Of a DNA stretch of 19,220 nucleotides, positions 1 through 18,000 are shown one piece after another. Under the pieces are notes generated by a model. That model did not search any database. It was not told the DNA's origin and worked only from the letters and a program-made list of their open reading frames with translations. Each line of letters opens with the position of its first letter. Positions within the stretch are counted from its first letter, which is position 1. The stretch lies in contig CAZGJX010000021.1 in the NCBI GenBank assembly GCA_964525635.1, positions 25,558-44,777 on the forward strand. The letters run 5' to 3'. Made by a program: the position numbers and the translations under genes. The stretch comes from an uncultured archaeon. GTDB lineage: Archaea > Asgardarchaeota > Lokiarchaeia > Sigyniarchaeales > SOKP01.

Positions 1-3000
1 TTGGAGCATGATATTAATGGAAATCGTCTTTTTATAGATGAGGATGGTGATGAATATCCTGATTGGCGATTTGATTTATATGATTTAATGAAAGTTTTTT
101 CATCATACGAATCATACCCTCTTACTAATGACAATTCCTTAACTTTCATGGCATTATTTAATGAAAGATCGGGTTTAGCAACAACGGATATTGTAAATAA
201 TTATATAGGAGATTTGAACGGTAATACAACATGGGATCAAGGGAGAAGAGGGAGTGCTTTATTCTTCGATGGTCAGGGAGATAAAATTATATTTGGTTCC
301 CCATGGCAAATGGGAGATGCAAATCATGATGGTAATGTTGATATTATTGATGCTCTTATTATTGCTCAATATTATGTAGGGCTAAATCCCCAGCCATTTT
401 TCACAGATCTTGCTAATGTGGATGGGAGCGGAACTATTGATATTGTAGATGCTCTCTTGGTTGCCCAATTTTACGTTGGTCTCTTACGTGAATTTCCAAA
501 TCAGGTAGAATCTTCGGTTCAATATATGAATTATGATTATGTTCAATATGGAAATATTTTAGATAATGCTTTAAGTAATTCAGATCAGTTTGTCATAACA
601 GCATGGATCAATCTAAATGAACTTCAATCTAATGAAAGTATTAATGGAATTCAAAATGTGTTTTTGGCAAAACAAAATGTTTTAGAATTAGGAGTTAATG
701 AATCTGGATATCTTCAAGTATATATAAATACATCTGAAGTATCTACAAAAGCCGAATATGGTATTAATGGAGCCATAATAAAAGATCAATGGACATTTAT
801 TGCTGTTCGGTATAATCAAAGCGATGTTGATGTCTTCATAAATGATCAATGGTATTTCTCAGCATTAGGGAGTATTGCAGAACCATGGGAAAGTTCTTCT
901 CTTACAGAACAAGGAGGAAATTTCACCATTGGTGCCGAGACATCTTCGTATAGTTGCTTTTCAGGTTTAATTGATGAGGTCTCTGTGTTTAATGAATCTA
1001 TATCCAATTTAAAAATCGAAGAACATAAGGGATATGATATGGTCCAATTTGAATGTCAGGTTCTTAAGAATGAGAATGAGGATTCTTGGACACCAATAAC
1101 AGAAAATGAAGAAATTGATAGACCTCTTTTGCTTAAAACAATTCTCCCAGTAGATCTTAATGCTCAAGTTGATACAATAACCTTTTATTTATCAGACTCA
1201 GAGCCTAATTTCCTCAATCCTGATGATGAGGCAAATTGGATTGAAATTATTGAATTTAATGGGACTCATCAAGAATATACATGGTGTATTGATTCATATG
1301 ATATTCCTGATTCCAATTCATGGTTTTTTATAGCTAAAGCAACGGATATTTACAATGATACCGTGTATGGGTATTATAACTACAATTTTTCTATTAATCA
1401 TTTAAAAGATTTAGCAGAATTTAACTATATAGATCTTGAGGGAAAAATTAACCAAAATTCCAATATTGGTGTTGTGGCTGAAGATCCTTTTGAGAACCAT
1501 ATTACATCCTTTAATGTTTATGTAAACAATTCAAATAAAATTGATTATCTAACATCTACCACATTTTTTGATATAAGTCAAAATAATAATCTAATTACAC
1601 TCCAATCTTTAGAAGAATGGAGTATTCTAAATAATGTAGAAGAACAAGAAATCTCTCTTAATTTCATCATTGAGGCTAATCTATCTTATTTCAATAGAGA
1701 GTATTATTTATTTAACTATACCTTATCAGAAATAATTGTTGATCTCCAAGCACCTCAAATAGCATTGCTTACAGGAGGTATCTATAATTTAAATTTGGGA
1801 GATGTGTATTCAGATCCTAATGAATATATATTACATGCTGCGATTGAATCTGCTCCAAGTGATTTTAAATATTTTGAGGTCTATTATAGATATGCAACGC
1901 CTTTAAATGATGCTTGGACTTTCTATGATTCATACCAACCAGGGAATATCCAACCTTATTATGATTTCTCAATAAATATTCGAGATTTAAAGGATGATCA
2001 AAAAATTGAGTTTATGATAAAATCTTATGACAACCTAGGAAACTCAAAAATATTTTTAAATGATTCCTATTGGTTTACAAAAGATATGAATAACCATGAT
2101 CATATATACATAGAAGGGATTGATGATGTAATAATTTATCAATTGGATGGTAACGGAATGATTGATATCAATCCAATTATATACCCTTTCGATAACGATA
2201 TCGATCGTGTAAGGCTTTATACTACATATGAGACATTTAATTTTAATATCAAATCTCTTGGAGAGGATTATATCTATTTTGATGAATCAGAATTTAATAT
2301 CCAGCTAAATTCCAATTATTATGATGTGTTTGCAGGGGAATTTAGAGATATCCTCATTACAATAGAACTATTTCAGGGTAATGATTTAATTAGTCAGACA
2401 CAAAGAGTAATTACAGTTACTCAATATCAATATCAAAATATTGTCAACATATCATCTATGGATGTAGATAGGGATACAGGTGATATTTTTCTTAATTTTG
2501 AGACAGGAGGGAATACATATAGATCTGAACATGAAATTCCTTATATTGTTCAAAATCAAAATCCTATGATTGAAATCTATAATTCTAAACGTCAGCTTAT
2601 TGATACTGTTATTCTATATCCCGTTAAAGATGATTCAGGAACTTATATATATAATCAAGACCAAATCGAGATTATCAACAATAAATTCAGTCTTTCATAC
2701 CCCTCTCTTAATCAAGGAGAATGCATGGTCTCCATAGATAAAGTTATCATTAACGGATCTGAATATAATTTTTATTATTATTTTGGTTCTGATGAAATTA
2801 TTATAAAATTAAGTAGTTCAAAGTTATTAGATGGGATATTTGGTCAGAGTATTCCTATCCAAATTCAGTATTCTATAAGCACCTCAATAAAGCAAGAGCA
2901 TCAATATTTTGGTAATTATAATTTCAAAAGTTTAACACAAGGATTCTTCACACTTGAGTGCATGTTTTATGATATATCTTCCTCAATTGTTAGAAATAAT

Positions 3001-6000
3001 ATTGATAATCTGCCAATTGATTATGAGGGTGTTAACATTTATCCCCAATTTGAAAGTATATTTTCAGTTCATCCTGAACATGGTTCATTAACATTTATTC
3101 TTGATGATATATCAGGAATTAAAGCTTATGATTTTAATATGAATTTATCAGGTTCTTGGTATATAGATGGACAATATTACACATTTTATCTTCATGATAC
3201 TAAGATCGAAGAAGGTTCATATCCTATAGCTCTTATAACCGAAGATTATCTAAACCAAGTAAGTACCTGTGAATTTATCTTAAAAATAGATAAAACACCA
3301 CCTAGTTTCTCACAGGTCTACTCTAATCCCCAGTATTGGGGGGGATTATTTTTAATTGAAGCAAATATTAGTGATTTTTCTTCCTTTAATATAGATGTTG
3401 AAATAAAACATATTTCAGGAGAGATTTATTCAGATATAGCATTTACAGAAATTGATAATAATGGTTTGACGCAGATTTTGGTTGATACAAATCAGCTACA
3501 AAATGGATTGTATGATGTTATCATTATAGCAACAGATAATGCAGGAAATGTAAATGAGTTAATTATTGAAGATCGTTATTTCGATAATGCTTATCCCCTG
3601 ATTGAAAGCATAGAAGAATTAGTAATTATGGATAACGACTTTATATATTCAGAAGAACTTATCGATATTATTTATTTTAACGAGAGAAAATATCTAAATC
3701 TCTCTGTCTATGATGAAATGTTCGATGAATTTAGCTGGGAATCCATAAATCATACATATTTCGAACAATTAGGCGTAAAAAGTGTTGAGATGTATTATAC
3801 AAAACCATTAACCTGGTATTCGATTCCTATTGCGGGAGACTTAAATTATAACCAATTAACCTATGAGGTCTTGGGGGATTGCAACTCTATAAAACAAATT
3901 AAAAAATTACGAATAAATTCTTATGAAATTGAGGAATTTACCGTATATAGAAGTGATGATTCTCTATATCTCAAGTTAGGTGAACAATATAGATATCTCT
4001 TAATCTCAAGTAGTACCATTGAAGCTCTCTACTATGAGGTAATTAAGACACCTCTTTCTTTAATTTATAATTCACAATTTCAGACATGGAGACTTAATTC
4101 CTCAGAAACAGATTATTTTAATATTTCACGATACCTAAATATATCAGAAGGAGATGAGTTCTTATTCTGGTTTAGCATAGAGGATGCCATGGGTATTAAT
4201 GGCGCTGAAGCTAACCAATTTATTTCAAAAACCTATAGGGGTATTTTTGATAATATACTTATGCAGGACAATATTGGAAAAGAGATTTACCAGTTTAGTC
4301 TTGGGACAACTATAGAGGGAGAAGGTATCTTAGTATCGGGTTCAGAGATTATGCAAGATTGCATGATTCAAATAAATATAAGCTCACTTATAAAGAATTA
4401 TAATGGAAATTCAGATATTAATAAAATATTTGTGTATGGTTCAGAAGACTCTATTAGCTTTACACCTCTTGGAAAAGCGTATGCATCTGAGAATGAGGAG
4501 ATATGGCAGTATTATTTATCTCCTGAACTTGTCTCTGAAATTACTTCAAGTCATTATTATATTAAGGTAATCATATTTGATAGAGCAGGAAATTATTTTG
4601 CCCAAAATAGTACTGTTAAAATCTTTGATTTCGGTGAAATTCAACTTATATCCGATATCGTATTTGGTGATCTCATACAATATGATGGAGATCATTTAGA
4701 TTTTACATTTACAGGAATGATTGATAATTTTAAAAATTCAACTGATCTTTATGAATTAATAATTGAATATTATGATTTTAATCAAAATGAATGGATTCCT
4801 CTGGCAACCAATCCGACTGAGGTAATATCTCAAGGATCATATGCAAACTATAACGTAATGTGGGATATAGAACAAGATAAGGAATTTCTTAATTCCATTA
4901 ATAATTTCACCTATGAATATCTGCCAATGAGAGTGACACCTTTAACAGATAATAATATATGGGGCACATGGGGCATGTTTAATAATCCATTAAATAATAG
5001 TTACAGACCACTTCTCATTTCAATAGAAGGTGTTATGCTAAATATTACGATTTATGATTTTGATCCAAATGATGGATGGGTTATTAATTCAAGTATAAGT
5101 GTTGAGGAGCCTATCTCTTCCGTCGATGGAGAAATTTTTAAATTGATTGATATAAATGAGGATAATTCCGAGGAAATTCTTCGTATGTGTCCTACTCATA
5201 TTGATGTAATTTATTGGGATGATAATGAAAATACATGGAAGCTAAAAGAGAATATTACAAATCTCTCTGGTTATAATTATTTAGCTTTTGATGTATTTTT
5301 TGATGAGGTTTCAAGATTAACCTATTTAATAACAGCACAGATCGATCTATTTGGGTGTATTACTCTATGGAAATATGAATTTACCTCATCTTATAGTTTA
5401 TTGGTTGTAAATTATATGAATGCTCCTGAAAATTTCACCCCCACAGCTATAAATGCTATAGAGTCTTTTGGCGTGAGTGCCTCAAAATCGATAATTGTTG
5501 CGGGACTAATGAGAAACTCCTATAGTTCGCAACTATTCGAATTTGATTTCGAATTTAATTTCAAAAATATAATATGTGATTATATTATAGGTAAAATTTC
5601 AATAATCGAAATAGGGGCTCAAAATCCCGATACGATCATGTTAGGAATAGAACGGCTCATGGTTTCTCAAATGGATATTGTTGTTATTTTAAAATACAGT
5701 AGTGCTTCTCAAACATGGATACAATATCAAGTATCAGATTTTGATGAGTCCGCTTTCAGAATAATTGATCTTCTCTGCATAACAGAAACTAATTATCAGA
5801 AACTAATTATCGCATCTGAAAATGGTATATTCCAAAATATATTAACGTTTACAGAAGATATCAAGACAATTATCAGCCCTGTCTGCTTTATTGAAGAAAT
5901 CTACTATAAAGAGGATCTAAATTCAAGCACTCCAACTATTGGCTTAAATCATATTCCTATTCAAAAAATTAATTCAATATATTATAAAGTAGATAATCAG

Positions 6001-9000
6001 AATTGGCTTGAATTACCTCGAAATTATTATATTAATTCCCGTTATGAAGTTAAAATAGATCTCACTGCTATATTTGAAAATCTTCTGAAAATAAAAATCT
6101 GCTATAGCTTTCTTTCTTTTTCTGACGAAAAAAAGTGTATAATTGATCCTAGTTTTCGATTCTATAATGCAAAAAGAACCAATAGAGAAAAAATAACAGC
6201 TTCAGGGACTTTTTATAATCTTTCTGAACTACCTATGCTATATTTAAATCAGGGCACATACTACAATGATCCATATGCAGATTGGAGGGAATTCAATGAA
6301 TTATCCTCTTGGGAGGAGAAAGGAATAAATTATCAATACGTACCAATAGTAAGCGGTCCGGGAACAACGGTAATCTACCCAGATGTAAGGACAGGTTGGT
6401 ATGATGATTTAGCTGAGGATTTCTACATGCCTGAATTAGACAATTCCTTTGCATATTATGGAGAGGATTATGAATCTGCCTTATTATCTGATGATCTTAC
6501 TGGTTATGGCGATTTTACCCAAAATAATTGGCTGGATGGAATATGGTTATCAGATCCCGCACTTTCTCAATCATATAATTTTACTGAAATGTATAACTCC
6601 CAGATTCATGACGAATCCAATCCATATGGATTATATAATTATTATGATTATGATGGGGATGGAATTGATGAGCAAAATATTCTTCTGAGAAATCGTCTTG
6701 TTGATTATAATCCAATTATGAGCGGTGATTCTGGAATCGGTGATTCAGGTTGGCTTCCTACAGATAATAATGTCTATGAATCCACCTATAGCTTTCAATA
6801 TGTAGAAAATGGTCAATTTCCAGATGATTCTGAATGGACACGGGAAGTAGATGAATTCGGAGATGCAAGAATAATCCAAGAAATGAACAATCACAGTAAA
6901 GTACTCCAACTTTCTGATTTTGAAAGTGGTAACAATAATGTAAAAATATCCTTAAATTTCTCAGAGTCTCAAGAGAAAAATTTTATTGAATTTTACTGGA
7001 TGACTGGAGATGCAGAAGATCCTATGGATTTTGCATTCTTACAATTAAGAAATGGAGAAGAAGAAATCTTGGAAATAAGATCTAATATTCAATTTATCTA
7101 TGTTGATGGTAAAGGACTCCAAATTACACCAATTGTTTTAAATAATCATTTATGGTATCATTATCGAATAGAATGGGATTGTACTAAAGGAACGTGGAAT
7201 CTTTATCTTAATAATGAATTAATCTGTAAAGATAGGTTATTTATCAATAATGTACCAAATATAGATAATCTATTTATTTATACAGAAGCAGGTAATTGTT
7301 ATAGCTATTTTGATGACTTTGGATTGCCCTGGGAAGGTTATACTTCAGGAGATAATCTTACTCCAAAAGAAATTCAAGAGTTCTCAGATAGTTCCCTAGA
7401 GGATGTTGAATATGCATTGTGTAGTTGGAATGAATATATCGCATTAGAGATGCTTAGTATTAATAGTTATTATGGTCTTGAAATTACAAATAAAATATCT
7501 ACAATTGATAAAGAAGGATTAAATGATATTCAAGTTGCATTTGATGTAGGTATGATAGGTTCGGAAAGGAATCCAATTACACTTCAAATATATAATTATA
7601 ATCAAGATAGGTGGGAATCTATTTTATTATCAGATGATAATAGCGCAAAAGAGTTTTGGACCTATCCTACACCTTCAATTGATGGAAGATTCCGACCTCA
7701 AATGGGAACCGATATCGCACTTCCAGATGCCTATATGAATACAATTTCTTTTGGGAGTACTTTTCCAATTCAAATAATTGGAAATGAGGTAAAGTTTGAT
7801 CCTTCACTTCTAAATGGCTCTAACTTTTTGTTGAACGATTATCATTTAATACCTGAATATTCACATAATTATAGGATAAATAACAAATGGTCTTCTGATG
7901 GTCATTTTATCATTTATGAGGAAAATCATCCAGTGAAAAAAATGCATAAATATCAGTTAGAAAATATTAAAATTGATCCAAATGAATTTCAGACAACTTT
8001 AGATCTTTTCCCAATTGAGAGCTCAGACTATATTACTCAAGATTTTTATAACGATTATTTAAATGATTTTAGTGAGTTTAAATTACGACTTATAACGAAA
8101 AAAGAAGAATCTGCTCCTTCTTATTTCTGTATTGGAGATTTCAAGAGTTATTGTCATACTGATACTAATTACTTAAATTATGCCAATTTTGAGAATGCGG
8201 GAAATTATAATACCACGATAAGTGATTCACTGGATCTTACTCCTTCTGGTTTAGAATTAAGAAAAAATTCAGGATTTAAATTAAAAGAAGATGATTCTTC
8301 TATAATCTTTAGAGATACATTTTCAAATACAAAAGATATTAAATGGGAGTTATATGGAACCGAAGAAAATGAGTTTGAGTTAGTTAGCCTTCCAATTGAT
8401 GATACTTGGGTTGATTCAGATCATAGAAATGTTAATTATGGGAATGATGAAAATTTATATTGCCAGACGGAAGGAAAATGGTATGATAATCCTTTATTAA
8501 CTCATTTAGTCTATTTAGGATTTACTGATTATCCTCAATATTTGAAAGATAACACAAGAGGAACTTCAGATTTCTTAAGATTATTTGGATCTCTTGGAGG
8601 AACTAATGGAAATTCTCAGACGTATTTTGTATATAAAACTTCTGAATTTGATGAAAATGCAATTACCTATAATTCAAGGCCCCAATTATCCAAGGATTTT
8701 ATTGGTGTACGTTATTGTTATGAGGAATTCTCAGACCAATGGATTACCATACCCATAAACGATCCTGAATATCTCTCTTATTATGTTTTAATGAATGTGC
8801 TCTCTTGTTATGAACCAGGGGCAGTATTTCATTCAAAAGAAAATAATATGAACATGCCTGAACTTCATCGTTTTATTAGAAAAAATTATCATGGAAGTGG
8901 TATGGCATATATGCAGACAAATAAACAAGAGACTTTAATTTTGAAAAGCTCTAAGTACAATTTAGTTCAATTAAATGAAGGGGATTATTTGATAGTTGAA

Positions 9001-12000
9001 TTTAAGACGACCGTTTCCAATAAAATTACATTATCTATGTTATCTGATGATATGTATGTAGAAAACTTTACCATTGTACCAGAGAATAATTATATCCATG
9101 AAAAACAATTCATAAAAATTCCAATCAATAGCTCAATAGCTTTTGATCAATTAATGTTTACTGGAGATTTTAACCCAGAGGAATATTTTATTGCTTATGA
9201 TATAGCAGCATATCCAGATGAAGAGAGATATAGTGAGGATTTTATAGAATATGATTATTATATTAATGGAGAGGATAATTCAATCATACTGAATTATGGC
9301 AGTAATGTCTATGATGCAGATTTTCAATCAATTTATTCCGAAGATGGTAAATATTGTACCATTAATTCTGAAATGAAAAATAGTAACCAAAATAGAGTTG
9401 AGATGGACGTTCTATTTGAAGATATTCATACAGAGGATATTGAATCTATCAATAAATTAGAATTGAAGATTAAAATAGATGATCTTTCCATCTCCCTAAA
9501 TTCATTTGAATTATTTTTGTGGAATTATCAATATCAAGCAAATATGGGTACTTATGAGAAATATGACTTTTTCAAAAGGGAGGATTATTTAGTTATTAGT
9601 ATTCCAAGAGGATCATTCTATAAATTTTATAATTCGGAAAATGGAATGTATTCATTTAAACTCAAATTAATTATTGATAATGAGCAATCTTTTACAATAA
9701 ATATAGACTCAATTAAACTGTCTGCGTTTATTCCATACCACACGTCATACGATATTTACAGATCAGATATGATCTTTACAAAATTAGCTGAATTTCAAAG
9801 TGGTAAGCTTTTATTTTCTCTCAATGATGAAATATACATTGAAATTAATGATACCGAACTGAATTATTATGGTCATCTAAATACACTTTCTTTTGTCTAT
9901 GAATATAATCTTTTTAAATTATCTGTTTATTTAAATAATAAAATCATTCTTAATCAGACAGGGATCTCCCTTAATAACATAAATCCTTGCATTGTAACCA
10001 CGTATGGAAAGAGTTCTACAAGTGGCCTTAAGATTGAATCATTAGAATCTTTATTTTTACAATATATTGAAGATGAGCAAGATTTCAGAGAATATAAAGA
10101 ACAGGTTAGCATAAGTTCAATGAACAATATGAACGTTGATTATTTATTTAATGAAAAAATGGCTGAAATAAGCCCTGAAAATACTTTCTTTAAATTCTCT
10201 TCTGATATAGAGGTAATCTATTCCTTCTCTGATGAGATGGATTCTATAAATATTTTTAATTATCAATTAAATCCAAGTTTTAGATCAAATAATAGCCTGA
10301 ATTTATGGAACTCAGATAAATATTATATGGAAGAGGGAATTATACCGAGTGGATATTCCCAATTTGAACGATCATATTTTAATGGTTCTTATGGGAGAGA
10401 ATATATTGAAGAAAATGCCCTTTTTATTAATCTTGATGATTCCTTATGGACACAGTTTCGACGCGATTTAAAATATAACGATATGGAAGATGGAACTCCC
10501 CGAATTCCAGATCCTCAATGGCAAGCAAGTGGACAGATAGATTCTTATAGAATAGCCCCAGATGGATGGTCTCAGTATGATGATGATATATATTCGTGGG
10601 TATATTCCGAAGATAAGAGCGGTTCGGATGTTGAGGGAGACCGGAATTATGCGAATTGTCTGGAGACCTATATGTTTGATACATTTTACAGTCAATATGC
10701 TGCTAGTGGCTATTATATAGCATCCCTTGAAATTGAGGTAAAGGTAAGAATTGATTGTGTTGGGCAATGGGATGATAATGCGTCCTTTTCTCAAATCTCA
10801 TTATTCGCGGTAAGAGACTATGATGGGAATATTGTAAACGAATATAGAAGTTGGGCAGAGCTAGAAAATGATAATCTCTGGCACACTTATAAATGGGATT
10901 TAACAAATTATTCCCGAGGTGCAGATGCTTGGATTGATGATGGACAGGTAAAAATCCAGATTGCAACACAGGTTGTATGCCCGCAATATTCACATGGAAT
11001 AGTAAATCAGCAAGTAAATAAAGCAATTGCAAGAATTGCTTGGGCAAAAAAAGGATCGGAAACCCATGGAGAATCATGGGTTGGATTTAATTTTGAAAGT
11101 GTTAATGGAGTTAATCCGCTTGGAACAAATAATGATTTCTTCTTTTATATAGATGCAAACTCCAATTATGATTGCCAAATGTGGTTTGACTCTAATGCAA
11201 TATCTAATTATATAGACATTAACGAGGAGATGGGAGATAATCCTATATTTCTAGATTTCTATGGTAATTGTAATGAAATCTATATTCAATTTAAGGATTT
11301 TTTAAATTATCCTGTCTCTTTAGACCCTCCTTTGGAAAGAATCATTGATATTGATTTTATGTACCTTGAGATGATAAATCAACCTATTTCCAAATATATC
11401 TATAATGATAAATCTATTTTATTAACTGAAGGATTATCAAGGAGATTGTATAATATCAATGGTTCAGATAAATCTACCGTCTTTGATGATGGACATTTTG
11501 GGAAAAACTGTGTATCGTTTAATTTACAAAATTCCATATTAACTCCTATATTTGGAAGAGAGAAAGGCGAACAAATAAGACTTGACCTAAAGCTTGAGGA
11601 TTTGGATTTATTTTTTAAATTATATCCAGATAATTTCCCAAATGATAGTAATTTAGTTGAAGGAGGGAATCCTCTAAAATATAATATCTCCTTGCTAGAT
11701 TATAAAAATAATCGATTCGGTAAGAGTTCTATTGATGATATTCAAATTCCTTTAATAACCCCCATTGATCTAACATTTAATGAACATGATTTAAAATCAT
11801 ATGATAATTTAGATTTGGAACTTAGTTTTAATTTGAATATATTATTGGAAAATAGAAAGAATGATATTGATTGGAGTTTACGTAATAGACTTGTATTTTA
11901 TAATTTTAGAACACAGCAATGGGAGGATTTTAAAGGGGAAATTAGAATTAAGAATAATAATATAAATAATGCCGTCTGGAATTATGAAGATGCTTCCAAT

Positions 12001-15000
12001 CCTCTATTTTACTTACAAAATATCGATGCTAACCAATTTGTACCTATAAGAAATGAAAATCCCGATTTGCAGATATTTAATCCATTTATTATTCAAGGGA
12101 TTAATAATGATACAATACAAGGAGGAAGAATGAGGATTGCTTTACTTTCATATATCCTTCCAGGTAACTTCTCAGAGAGTCAAGATATTTATCTTTCATA
12201 TGAGCGAGAAGATCCCAATATACCCATTAAAATCTCCCAAAATCTACAAATAAATGAATGTGTACTTTTATGTAATTCGCATAAGGTCTTATACCAGAGC
12301 TCTACGTTTGAATCAGAAATTAATTTAGATGGTGCTTACGAAATAGATTTAAATTCCATGTCCAATCCAGAGATAGGAGCGGTAATGAAAATCACAGAAA
12401 AATATGAAAACACTGAAAATCAGATTGAATTTATTCCTATATTTGATTATTCCGTCTCTGTAGATAATATCCTTTCAATTCGACAATGTAATATGAAACA
12501 TCTATTCACAAGCATTATCATCGAATATCTTCCTCAATTAGAGTTAATACAATATCCAGAGTATCCCAACTCATGGTTTGCTCCAAATAATTATCAACAT
12601 TATAGCTTACCCATTTATCTTTCAGATGTAAAAGATAATAATACAGACTACGGTTCATATGTCCATCCAAATATTCCAATAGATTATATCATGGGTTTTA
12701 ATGAGGGGTATGGCCTCTATATCAACTTTACAGACTCAATTGAACCAATTGGGACACCTAAAGCTTCAATATATTATAGCAAGGCTGATGGTAAATATAC
12801 GTATAGTATTCCGATTGAGGATATATTATTATTTAATTGTAAATTTTTGGAGAATCCATTAGATCTTTTAGGAGGTGAAATTCAGGTGGATCTTAATTTG
12901 GGACTTAATAATCTAAGATATTCTAGTATGTCCCAATTAAGGGCAAGCGATTTTAAAGTAAACCTTCGCTTTTATAAATATTGCGAGGGACAAGAACTAA
13001 TTGAAATCGGTACAACAGCAGTATTATTGAACACTTCAAGACTTGATTTCAGTTATCGTCAGATTAATGTTCCAATAGATTCAATTATTTTTTCACAAAA
13101 TGGTGCAGAACAATTAGGAGAAATCCTAACAAAAGGGAGTAAGGATAATTTATTAATAAAAATTCAAAGTACAATAGCAAATATAACCGTAGATGGGGCC
13201 ATTTTTAAGGGAGATTTCGCCCAGCAGATTATAAATGCAGCATTTAAGATAAAATCCCAAGAAGCAGACCTTTTATACAATAAAAATGCAATTTTTGAAC
13301 CTTATATATCTATTCCCCAAAATCAAATAGAGTTATCTTATAGTAATCAAGGAAAGTATCAAATCCCGATAAGTGAGCTATTATATGATTTTGATTATGA
13401 TATTATTGATTTATATACCGCTACCAATGATGTACTATGTAATGATGATTATATCTATGATCCTCTTGTACAAGAAATTACTTTTTTGGGTAATTATTCA
13501 ACCTATAAAGGAAAATTATATGTAAATATTAGTTATAAAGGATTTGAATGGAATAAGGATTCTATCTCAACATTAGAGCCGATTTTTTTTAATTTCTCAG
13601 GTTCTTATATTGAGAGATATACCCAATATATTGAAATCAAAGTTGAATTTAATCAAGATGGTATTCCTGGTTATGAACTCCGTGATTTTGATCATGAGAC
13701 GGGAAGGCTAATTCTTTGTGAGGAAGTGAAGGATGCGAGTCTCATGGATATTTATTTATACAATTACCAAAGATCTAAGTGGGAGATTGTTAATGCTGTT
13801 GTATATGAACGAATCAGTATAACTCAAGAAGGAATAATTCCCGCTTATTCTTATATTCTTGATAGAGAATTTACGAATTTTGAGAATTACTTCCAAAATA
13901 TAAATTCAGATGATTTCCATATGAAGGCTATATTCTCAGTCAAAGGGGATATTGGTAATAGCTTTTCTTCGAAATTGAGTTTAGGTATAGAGAATGCATC
14001 CTGCATGATCTATTACAATCTTCCTACAGAACATATTAACTTGAATCCTATAATTGATTTTGATATTGATCTCACAGAATTTTATCAAAGTAAAGACAAT
14101 GTTATAGAAGAAGTAAAACTATCTTTAGATTATTTTTCGGACATATCCTTTAAAGGCTTGAGTGAAATTGATCAAAATGTACTCATTCAAAAGAGTTATA
14201 ATTTATATTTTCTGGATAAATACTTCCTTGATTATATTTTGGTTAATTTTTCAGAAAATTCAATTATTTTAACTAGTGAACAACTCGAAAGATTTTTATT
14301 TACATCACAGGATCATCAAAAGAAATATATAAGGGCTCAATTAGAATATGATTGGAATTGTATTTTACAGATAAATTCCAATGTAAATTTAAATATGGAA
14401 GTAATTGCGTTTCTACGTTTACAAAAATATGAATTATCAGTAAAATATACATCGATTAAGACAAAAATGATCTCCGCACAGCAAGGAGATTATGATTATC
14501 AATTGCAGACAATAAATGCACCAAATTATATAGAATCTGATGGGACTCTCTATACTCTAGATAACGATGATGACATTGATATTGGTATTATGGGAGGATT
14601 CTTACGAAATGTGGATACCAGACAGAAATTAATGGTTAGGCAAAAATTAATCTATAAATTTTCAGAAAGTCAGGATGGACCATATAATATTATATTGGAT
14701 CAAGATGATACCGATACTATTCTCAGATTTACTAATTTAATTGGTTGTTTAGAAGGACCTATAACATTTAATCTGAATAATAGCCAACATTTCTCATTTT
14801 ATGCTGATTTCGAGATAATGAACATCTCAATGTATTATGATAATTTAGGGAATTATATAGGTGATATGATTCCTTCTTCAGAGGACTCTGGATGGTTTGA
14901 ATATGTATGGAATGATATTCAAGCTTTTACCCAGACTCAGACAGGAGATATGATATCAATTATCTTTCAATTGGAAGATATCTTAGGAAATTTAAACTCA

Positions 15001-18000
15001 ATTCGATATAATTTTACTGTTGATTATACTGTCCCTAATCCTTCAATTATTATCGGTCAGGATAATGATAATTATGAGATGAATCAGATAGCAACTCCAT
15101 TTACCTCAATTCAATTTATTCACAATGAAGAAACTGAATATGGTTTTAGCGAATTCTATAAGATTATTGACCTTGTCTCAGGGCAGGAAACTTCATGGAT
15201 AGAATTTAATTCATCTAATATCAATCATCTCAATGATTTTATTAATCTATCATCGAGATTTAAAATATTATATAAAATTATTGATATGGCAGGTAATATT
15301 GGATTATGCGATACTTATAATAATTATAATTATAAATATATTCAATTTTCTACGGAAACAGATCTTTTCTGGTATGATAATGATAATACCATTAATTTAA
15401 ATAGTGTTTTATTAGAGGAAAGAGAGTTAATCTTTCAAGCAGATTTCAATCAGACTTCAGAACTGGACGTATTAATTAATGGGTTTCATTACGGCTCTGC
15501 GATATATGACACGCTAAAAGATTATTATAAAGTGAATTTTGGAACTGAAAATAACTATGATTCATTGATCTGCTACTCAAATTCGCTCTTAAGCCCATAT
15601 ATTACCTCTAATATAAATCCCCTCGATCATATATCATGGGATATTTCAAATGAGGATTATTATGCTGTTGTAAAGCATGTATTATTAAATGGCGAGATTG
15701 AGATCGTAAATAGTCTTACCTATGATAAAATAACAACTTTTAACATTAATAACATTTATGATCGTGGGTTAATCCTTTCTGATTTAGTGAGAATTAAGCA
15801 AGTCTACTATTTTAACTCCTCTGATAGTGATACAATTTATAATTTGGATCTTGGTGACTATTTTGTTGATCAACAAGGTAAAATTACATGGCCAGACACC
15901 TCTCCTATTCATACTATATATAATGACTCTCAAGATGTAAAAGATGGACTTTTATATTTTGAATATGATGCATCTTGGTTTTCTAATGAGCTAAGATTAC
16001 AGAATGCAGACGGGTTTTTCATCAATCTTTCCATCCCTGATGTTTACTATCGACACACGACGATAGAACAATTAGCAATACAATTTATTGATATATTCGG
16101 AAATACCTTTGCAAAGACATATTCCAATATAGATTTAAGCAGATATTTCCAACCTGAAATTCGAGATTTCTACAATGAAAGAATTTTCGGTCTGGGAGAT
16201 ATGATGACAATACCGCTTTATATTCCTTTAGAAGAACTTGCTATGTCGAATATATACGCTGATCTAGACTTAAATCTATTGGAATCTATAAGTTTCACAA
16301 TTACCGATTCTGATATGTGGCCCTCATCTTTCTATGAAGAAAATGATGAAATTTCTGTATTAAATTTACCATATCAAAAATTTGCCATAAAAGATATTAG
16401 CCTCTATAATTTAATAATCGATGATATCCTTGAAAATAAAAATGGTATAGTTATATCTAGTATAGAAGTGAGAGCTCCTGAGTTCTATAATTATTATGCG
16501 TCATCAGAATTTCAATTAAAGAAAGTCAACATACCCTTAACGGATGTGAAAGTGTTCTATAATAGAAAGGAAATAACCGAGTGTGTAGACGTGGAATATT
16601 CGGATGATATTGAGGTCTATTTCTATTTTAACCACTCAAATTCACCTATTCTTATGGATGACCTAATGACAATGCAATTATGTCTTACTGATAACTCTTC
16701 TGGAGGTATCTACACCCAAGGAAATATCTATTTTATATCAAAACCCGATTTCTTGAGTCCTGCTGGTTATTTCAGCAAATATTATTATACGAAATTTAAG
16801 GTCCCAATAGAGCTTGACAATTATAGTTTAAAATTTACATCCTATGGAAGCCCAATTCATAATATCTATTTAGAAGAAAATATCTATTTTAAGATAAATG
16901 TCGTTCAAGAAAGCCTTTCAGAAGCCACACCTATTTATTTAGAACAAGATAATTATAAGCTAAACTATGAGGATTCAGTTATAATAAAAGGATGCCTACT
17001 GGATAATGATGAATATCTTGTTGAGGATAAGTTATATAGTTATAGATATCAAGATGCAATCGATGGTGAGAGCGCCTATCCATTATCTATTACCTTTCCT
17101 TATGAAAATGATAATATTATTGATAAATCTGAATTTATGGTCTATTATCTAGACGAACAGCTTGAAAAAGTACTACTTTATGTTAATTTTTATGGAGAGC
17201 ATTATAAGGATACCTCAATTTTAGACTTCAAGAGAGATCCCAAAATTAATTTTGTTAATAATGAGTATATTCTTACAATATATTGGAATTCAAACTCTCT
17301 TGATTTCATAGATTTTAACACCGAATTATTAATTTCAATTAAAAGAATTGATGGAAGGACGATTACCCCTATTTCTTATTCAGAAAGGGATCAATATGGC
17401 AACATACTATATCAAAATTACGTAGAGATTCCGTTTGTAAAATATGATATGATTCAAAATAAATATATAACTAAACAGAATTTTACAGAACCTTTTACCA
17501 TTACACAGCAATTAATGACCTTTGAGACTGAAAATCCGAGTGTATTACTACATAGACCAAAATATCAGGAAGGACCGAACACTATAGAGTTGGATATATT
17601 GGGAATTCAATCCGTCTATGTTAATAAATCCAATTCCTATCTTTTTGAAAGATTGGATGAGGTAAATTATTCCTCCTATATCACCCGTTCAGGAGATCTC
17701 CATGTCGATTACCATAATTTCTCTCAAGGAGATATTGTGCAAATTAACTATTATACATATCTTCCAATAGAAATAGAACATCCATTAAATAGTCCTATTT
17801 CTGAATTATATTCTGTTCGAGTTTATTCAATGGAAAATACTTCTCGGAGATATGAATTTACAAGTGATGAGATTGAAATTTCCGATGATGGACATCGATT
17901 GTATTTACCACATTTATACACTAATTTGGCATATAATAATTTTACCATATACGATAAGTTTGAAGTTCTATATTATAGTAGCCTTACAAAAAATATAGAT

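Follow-up and report, generated by a model that had tools for sequence, protein, structure and literature searches.

Dockerins are commonly treated as terminal tags. Known examples are located at the end of a chain (usually the C-terminus) or between modules, and pipelines for annotation and for cellulosome mining search for them at chain termini. A 19,220-nucleotide (nt) stretch of Asgard archaeal DNA, referred to throughout as the window (G000:C21:25558-44777, where G000 is the source genome), raises the question of whether a dockerin can also be carried in the interior of another folded domain. The original prediction for the window placed a complete dockerin within the LamG domain of a giant surface protein, displayed on a loop of the lectin-like fold. 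The explanation that best accounts for the locus as a whole, to which we give a probability of roughly 85%, has three parts: a nested dockerin, a hairpin that serves as a hotspot for insertions, and lateral docking of the giant protein through the dockerin.

Profile searches identify both domains. Dockerin_1 (Pfam PF00404) matches amino acids (aa) 105-156 with 30 bits against a cut-off of 22.9, and with 35.4 bits in a scan of the genome. Laminin_G_3 (PF13385) matches aa 178-337 with 51.5 bits against a cut-off of 27.6, covering profile positions 4-148 of 151. A search with these two hidden Markov models had been proposed in the expectation that a split LamG match would flank a dockerin match. 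The dockerin match was obtained and the split was not, because PF13385 omits the N-terminal strands of the domain and cannot report one. The profile starts at the DYV strand, and the segment preceding the dockerin, which ends in ALFFDG, falls outside it. The strings from which the nested arrangement had been read, ALFFDGQGDKIIFGS and DYVQYGN...FVITAWIN, are present at the places given for them.

A LamG that looks complete after the dockerin, matched by PF13385 only from profile position 4 at aa 178, is what would be seen if the two domains were ordinary tandem neighbours. The segment before the dockerin would then be an independent small module or linker, with the LamG beginning past the dockerin, an order that resembles two bacterial proteins (P0064 and P0097) in which an N-terminal dockerin is followed by a LamG. 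However, this segment is homologous to contiguous N-terminal strands of LamG domains that lack an insert. Alignment to homologues of this kind, which the original prediction had called for, recovered eight of them from the source and related genomes, all running unbroken from the N-terminal segment into the DY(V/I)xFG strand. Relative to these eight, the window protein and its ortholog in a second species have about 85 extra aa directly after FDG.

Two of the eight are paralogues from the source genome itself. The source genome encodes ten LamG_3 domains, and those on contigs C5 and C63 have both the same N-terminal segment and the same upstream context (YAGLE...FFID...PDW), with FDG leading directly into DY(I/V)xFG. 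The window LamG is 42-52% identical to the insert-less domains L019, L020 and L025 over the whole aligned length, N-terminal piece included, and it conserves the FxxxxW core and the FDG...DYV hairpin of the LamG/ConA-like fold. Solved structures agree, as evident by a profile search of the PDB in which the G..G..FDG strand is contiguous with the following strand in 5HON/5HO0. Judging from these alignments, aa 47-91 is the normal N-terminal part of this LamG type.

Structure prediction led to the same arrangement. AlphaFold2 was supplied with a 53-row alignment that combined insert-less homologues, homologues carrying other inserts (cassettes) and trimmed dockerins, whose rows start at GD. This run gave a predicted local distance difference test (pLDDT) value of 91.0 and a predicted template modelling score of 0.78, and a single-sequence run reached a pLDDT of only 32. 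In the model, where residue 1 corresponds to aa 40, the N-terminal piece forms strands E8-12, 21-23, 30-34, 38-42 and 45-51 with pLDDT values of 82-97, the last of them ending in SALFFD, which argues against a linker or separate module at this position. The outgoing neck includes strand E55-59, in a block with a pLDDT of about 64. Two dockerin helices follow (H76-86 and H109-119, with a short helix H96-99 between them; pLDDT 91-97), and the returning neck includes strand E133-137. Residues 131-134 are a predicted flexible linker because their pLDDT is under 50. The C-terminal piece resumes with a strand at YVQ and continues through the remaining sandwich at pLDDT 83-98, such that low model confidence is confined to the two linkers (blocks 51-60 and 131-140). 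Both halves of the LamG (aa 47-91 and aa 178-344) are thus predicted to form one sandwich, in which the N-terminal segment packs with the C-terminal piece as had been anticipated, and the dockerin is predicted to be a separate helical module.

The best Foldseek match to the model is 5hon_A, domain 4 of the Geobacillus stearothermophilus arabinanase AbnA, which has the same fold as the window LamG. Superposition with VIA-align places the whole 206-aa domain of 5hon_A (640..845) on model residues 4..305, with a Z score of 21.4 and a root-mean-square deviation of 2.7 over 190 residues. Because these 190 aligned residues exceed the 167 aa of the C-terminal piece, the N-terminal piece must be part of the same sandwich, with the dockerin skipped. 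The N-terminal lectin-like domains of clostridial toxin Hc regions also resemble the model, with Z scores of 18-20. Since the homologue alignment, the AlphaFold2 model and the single-domain superposition all agree, we consider it highly probable that the dockerin is genuinely inserted into another domain, on a loop of its lectin-like fold, and is not a module between domains; the tandem arrangement is correspondingly very improbable. Relatives of the host without the guest exist (the eight homologues described above), and so do free-standing guests, in the form of 22 C-terminal dockerins in the same genome. The parts of the module are listed in Table 1.

Table 1. Parts of the nested module and the gene that contains it, in window coordinates.
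Feature	Position (nt)	Position (aa)	Strand	Basis
LamG N-terminal piece, LTFMALFNE...ALFFDG, five predicted beta-strands	139..273	47-91	+	Homologue alignment, AlphaFold2
Outgoing neck QGDKIIFGS, predicted strand DKIIF	274..300	92-100	+	AlphaFold2, motif
Complete dockerin, from W of WQMGD to P of REFP	304..498	102-166	+	Pfam, AlphaFold2
Returning neck NQVESSVQYMN, predicted strand SVQYM	499..531	167-177	+	AlphaFold2, motif
LamG C-terminal piece, YDYVQYGNILD...EEHKGY	532..1032	178-344	+	Pfam, alignment, AlphaFold2
Giant surface-protein gene hosting the module	1..19218		+	3' end open at contig end

The same architecture is present in a second species of the genus (G001). Its ortholog, an open frame of 11,376 aa, carries the same nested dockerin and matches query residues 8-302 without a break. 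It reads FDGLGDKIYTNSEFKMGDVNHDG...YYVGLITEFPNSDPSEITYDNYDYINFG, and its outgoing neck is GLGDKIYTNS. The dockerins of the window protein and the G001 ortholog are 63% identical and the LamG halves 39-42%, suggesting that the guest is held closer to its family consensus than is the host. Pairwise identities further reveal that both nested dockerins resemble the genus consensus more than they resemble each other, values that would fit purifying selection or gene conversion alike. Taken together, the alignment, the domain matches, the ortholog and the metagenomic contigs described below agree with the original placement of a complete dockerin inside the LamG. This query did not match a nested ortholog in G002 (98% complete) or G003 (89%), where it should be kept in mind that giant genes are often fragmented. 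Likewise, a word-based, length-limited search found no further nested dockerin among homologues of 546-2,000 aa or 3,523-11,211 aa.

The loop that holds the dockerin is used for insertion across the family, a feature absent from the original prediction. A HMMER scan of 1.84 billion cluster representatives yielded 3,150 matches, the best 150 of which were examined for pairs of N- and C-terminal pieces. Among these 150, there are 27 cases in which an N-terminal piece is followed by a C-terminal piece. In 14 of them the pieces abut, with no more than 12 aa in between, and in the other 13 a stretch of 172-888 aa intervenes; no gap of 13-99 aa occurs among the 27. For metagenome loci that have both pieces, 13 of 17 are split by about 170-580 aa. 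The break always falls at one place, FDG-xG-x(I/V)(I/T)..., cassette, ...Yx(D/N)(F/Y)DYVxFG. By BLAST, the cassettes fall into three clusters, none of which is a dockerin; on comparison with Pfam, one type gives weak H_lectin matches and most have no family. One protein (P0002; 1,583 aa) has two tandem LamG domains, of which the first is intact with an 8-aa gap and the second is interrupted by a cassette of 321 aa.

Several members of the subfamily hint at how such sites change. L056 (2489-3031) is a LamG with an empty site, in which only a few residues (FDGDGTEYYNFDYV), amounting to a 7-aa stub, separate the neck motifs. It lies inside a clade (support 99) in which the remaining members have cassettes of 297-399 aa, suggesting either loss of a cassette or a state that preceded insertion. 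Sister LamG sequences carry different cassettes. In addition, an H-lectin-like cassette like that nested in P0004 precedes an intact LamG at L019:1-2046 (G001:C95); the H-lectin-like module thus occurs both in tandem and nested. Collectively, L056, the differing cassettes in sister sequences and the tandem G001:C95 module point to probable exchange at the FDG site. Judged by these comparisons, the FDG hairpin is an insertion hotspot in this LamG subfamily, about half of which carries unrelated cassettes of 170-890 aa.

This wider pattern bears on how the flanks of the dockerin are to be read. The original prediction had taken DKIIFGS before the insert and DYVQYGN after it as two occurrences of one strand, left as a scar when a single recombination or insertion event duplicated the strand that follows FDG. 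There is a weak protein-level likeness between them in the window, D-x-(I/V)-x-(F/Y)-G. However, the flanking DNA is only about 52% alike with no direct repeat between the flanks, and the strand before the insert is not conserved, as evident by DKIYTNS in the ortholog. Moreover, the same motifs before and after the insert flank unrelated cassettes in many homologues, as well as the 7-aa form L056. The neck motifs of the window, GxGx(I/V)(I/T) before the insert and Yx(D/N)(F/Y) before DYV, are common to the cassette-bearing homologues. Because these homologues hold different and much larger cassettes, the flanks resemble two strands of a neck that is conserved in the family. The scar, a one-off duplication, is improbable, and this element of the earlier proposal did not hold up.

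The host gene itself encodes a giant protein. On the + strand, frame 1 of the window is open throughout (6,406 aa), including its 3' end, where the window reaches the end of the contig. A 100-N scaffold gap lies directly upstream of the window (G000:C21:25403-25557 comprises the pre-gap stretch and the gap), and the 55 nt that precede the gap are identical to window positions 1-55. This identity is the k-mer overlap of two contigs, as expected for such joins. When the contigs are joined, the frame gains 831 codons upstream and reaches a region rich in hydrophobic, membrane-spanning stretches, in which a lysine-rich cytoplasmic head is accompanied by about ten hydrophobic segments. The joined protein exceeds 7,200 aa, and the nested module is located about 300 aa past the last hydrophobic segment. 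Beyond the dockerin, the LamG and a CBM96 match deep in the giant protein (window 8392-8763, aa 2798-2921; 48 bits against a cut-off of 26), Pfam recognises almost nothing else in 6,400 aa. The source genome is a metagenome-assembled genome (MAG) of 4.45 Mb in 245 contigs, 100% complete by markers, and the window has about 30% G+C. The genome also encodes an actin, which scores 443 bits against the Pfam Actin profile and is 97-100% identical to genes in many MAGs, mostly those of Promethearchaeota or Promethearchaeia; this places the source organism among Asgard archaea of the Loki type.

Near-identical copies of the window DNA are present in about twenty metagenome runs from salt marshes, dated 2019. 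In four salt-marsh runs, Logan contigs span window positions 1-351, passing from the LamG N-terminal piece into the dockerin, and contigs from the same four runs extend from 322/330 to at least 553, passing from the dockerin into the LamG C-terminal piece. Depths agree on both sides in the four samples.

The guest has the features expected of a complete dockerin. Two tandem Ca2+-binding F-hand loops, DANHDGNVDIID and NVDGSGTIDIVD, are each followed by a helix, and an internal 53-nt repeat (331-383/430-482) corresponds to the usual dockerin duplication. There are 25 dockerins in the source genome, and the 22 C-terminal examples end 2-17 aa from the stop codon. These dockerins share a common frame, (W/F/Y)Qx-GDVNHDG...YVGLI(E/D)(L/F)P followed by the stop codon, and the nested copy retains it in full (WQM-GDANHDG...FYVGLLREFP). 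At the sequence level, the nested dockerin is 70-77% identical to the C-terminal dockerins of the genus. The residues that follow the Ca2+ loops, II/IV and AQ, which are putative recognition positions, are as in the family consensus.

The ends of the nested dockerin are also intact. In dockerins, an aromatic residue just before the conserved glycine touches the C-terminal proline, forming a "clasp" that stabilises the Ca2+-bound fold and cohesin binding and that is documented for ScaA of R. flavefaciens, among other dockerins (PMC3821032). Both elements are present here, as in the C-terminal dockerins of the genus: an aromatic residue at -3 (W in the window, F in G001) and the C-terminal proline (EFP). 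If its two ends meet in this way, the nested dockerin would be well suited to a hairpin. Only two other dockerins of the genome are non-terminal. One (G000:C63:3182-3337, - strand) is degenerate and lies mid-chain in a 2,479-aa frame, sharing strand and contig with an insert-less LamG paralogue, and the other (G000:C22:34938-35090, + strand) occupies aa 124-174 of a 488-aa frame.

Several observations weigh against the account developed here. The packing of the two LamG halves by AlphaFold2 is driven by the insert-less homologues and depends on the alignment. The nested dockerin is found in only two of the four genomes of the genus, and none is present among the best 150 of the 3,150 matches in 1.84 billion representatives. 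A tree of the LamG scaffolds, with its unresolved backbone, does not settle whether the window and G001 LamG domains are sisters or whether the nested dockerin arose only once. Within the dockerin, loop 1 has DAN in place of DVN, and loop 2 starts with N rather than D (NVDGSG), a feature shared with one C-terminal paralogue (C94). Finally, the contigs of all four salt-marsh runs break at window 322-351, a 30-nt word common to other dockerins, and the two junction contigs are connected by their depth and by the ortholog. This word lies in the first Ca2+ loop and helix, and is a likely cause of the fragmentation of dockerin genes in these MAGs.

The shared break, a source MAG in 245 contigs and a 100-N gap just upstream are circumstances in which an assembler might have joined two genes through repeated dockerin sequence. 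Such a chimera is nevertheless extremely improbable. Each of the junction contigs is odd on its own, one running from a LamG N-terminal piece into a dockerin and the other from a dockerin into a LamG C-terminal piece. Depths match across both sides in four samples, the frame stays open, and the same layout recurs, at 45% identity, in another species whose genome was assembled independently. Because contigs of four runs cover the junctions and another genome of the genus has the same architecture, the nested dockerin is not an assembly artefact.

A functional dockerin would require a partner, and candidates are encoded by the same genome. We found eight matches to the cohesin family PF00963, five of them over the cut-off. 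Two near-twin, scaffoldin-like proteins of about 775 aa (L060, G000:C10:4303-6618; L061, G000:C110:2913-5243) each have an N-terminal signal or transmembrane segment, followed by three cohesins (72-81% identical) that alternate with immunoglobulin-like modules. Each ends in a PGY-hydrophobic-KRRQ tail, a membrane anchor that resembles the PGF-CTERM archaeosortase anchor.

From these components, the following arrangement can be proposed. The LamG/ConA-like sandwich carries a whole dockerin in the beta-hairpin that follows FDG, on a predicted short two-stranded neck, with the guest in this genus drawn from the organism's own dockerin family. Ends that meet would let the dockerin sit in the hairpin without disturbing the host. 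When bound to Ca2+, the dockerin could attach the giant protein sideways, close to its base at the membrane, to a cohesin of one of the membrane-anchored three-cohesin scaffoldins. Because the plug would be lateral, both ends of the giant chain would stay free. The giant protein would also be co-located with other dockerin-bearing proteins, since the scaffoldin could hold two more. Docking of the nested dockerin onto a cohesin is putative, and we lean towards it.

The main rival to docking is a dockerin that is nested but non-functional, serving as a Ca2+-binding structural knob or persisting as a relic, with the giant protein left undocked. The deviations noted above in both Ca2+ loops would be in keeping with decay, as would the clearly degenerate C63 copy among the two other non-terminal dockerins. 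In contrast, the dockerin is more conserved between the two species than is its host, its similarity to C-terminal dockerins is high, with the same residues at the recognition positions, and its clasp residues are intact. Also, the N-start of loop 2 is shared by the C-terminal paralogue C94. On balance, loss of function appears rather unlikely, and we favor a dockerin that can still bind its cohesin.

Each component of this architecture has precedents. Neurexin and agrin LNS domains carry variable splice inserts in their rim loops. Those inserts are short peptides, whereas the LamG described here holds a whole autonomous domain, and its relatives hold inserts of several hundred residues. Type I dockerins of bacterial cellulosomal and non-cellulosomal systems likewise have two F-hand Ca2+-loop/helix repeats, an aromatic residue before the conserved glycine and a C-terminal proline, and in the source genome, as in those systems, cohesins are encoded as well. 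The difference is that the dockerin of the window is spliced into a hairpin of another domain, in an Asgard archaeon, and is known from sequence and a structural model.

The nearest published case has the inverse topology. In the ‘Dockerin-type’ giant proteins of Omnitrophota, structure prediction places a CBM35-like barrel between the two dockerin-like helices (preprint 10.1101/2023.11.21.568195). Those proteins share with ours the fusion of a sugar-binding-type beta module and a dockerin-like module in a giant surface protein. However, there the beta module interrupts the dockerin helices and the unit is repeated in tandem in bacteria, whereas here the dockerin interrupts the beta module, as a single copy in an archaeon.

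Domain insertion in general is common, and a survey of such architectures mentions neither dockerins nor LamG/ConA-like domains in its main text (PMC13114784). The window module shares their A1-B-A2 layout, in which an autonomous guest with close termini occupies a surface hairpin of the host. It differs in that one hairpin accepts several unrelated guests within one subfamily, making for an unusually clear hotspot. The literature searched yielded no natural example of a dockerin within another domain. Dockerins, LamG domains and domain insertion are each known, and it is the family-wide insertion hotspot that adds to them.

Some implications reach beyond this organism. A dockerin displayed on a loop indicates that this type of plug can be attached laterally to another domain, and the clasp between its termini would make the dockerin a natural loop-insertable module. 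This property is relevant to the engineering of designer cellulosomes and protein scaffolds. The hotspot also offers a natural series of hosts and guests at a single hairpin (empty, a 7-aa stub, 85 aa and 170-890 aa) that should help in tracing how inserted domains originate and how they are exchanged.

For the archaeon, a giant surface protein might be held at its base by a scaffoldin with both of its ends free, and because the host is an Asgard archaeon, such a surface architecture bears on attachment to partners or substrates. More tentatively, and with odds that we place short of even, the FDG hairpin could serve giant surface proteins of Asgard archaea as a display site at which cassettes are exchanged, with the dockerin version representing an undescribed lateral, mid-chain form of cohesin-dockerin assembly that joins a membrane-anchored protein of more than 7,000 aa to an archaeal scaffoldin. 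If this is true, the hairpin would accept H-lectin-like modules, beta modules of unknown type or a dockerin as binding modules, and a giant adhesin would be connected to a cellulosome-like complex on the cell surface, in the lineage closest to eukaryotes.

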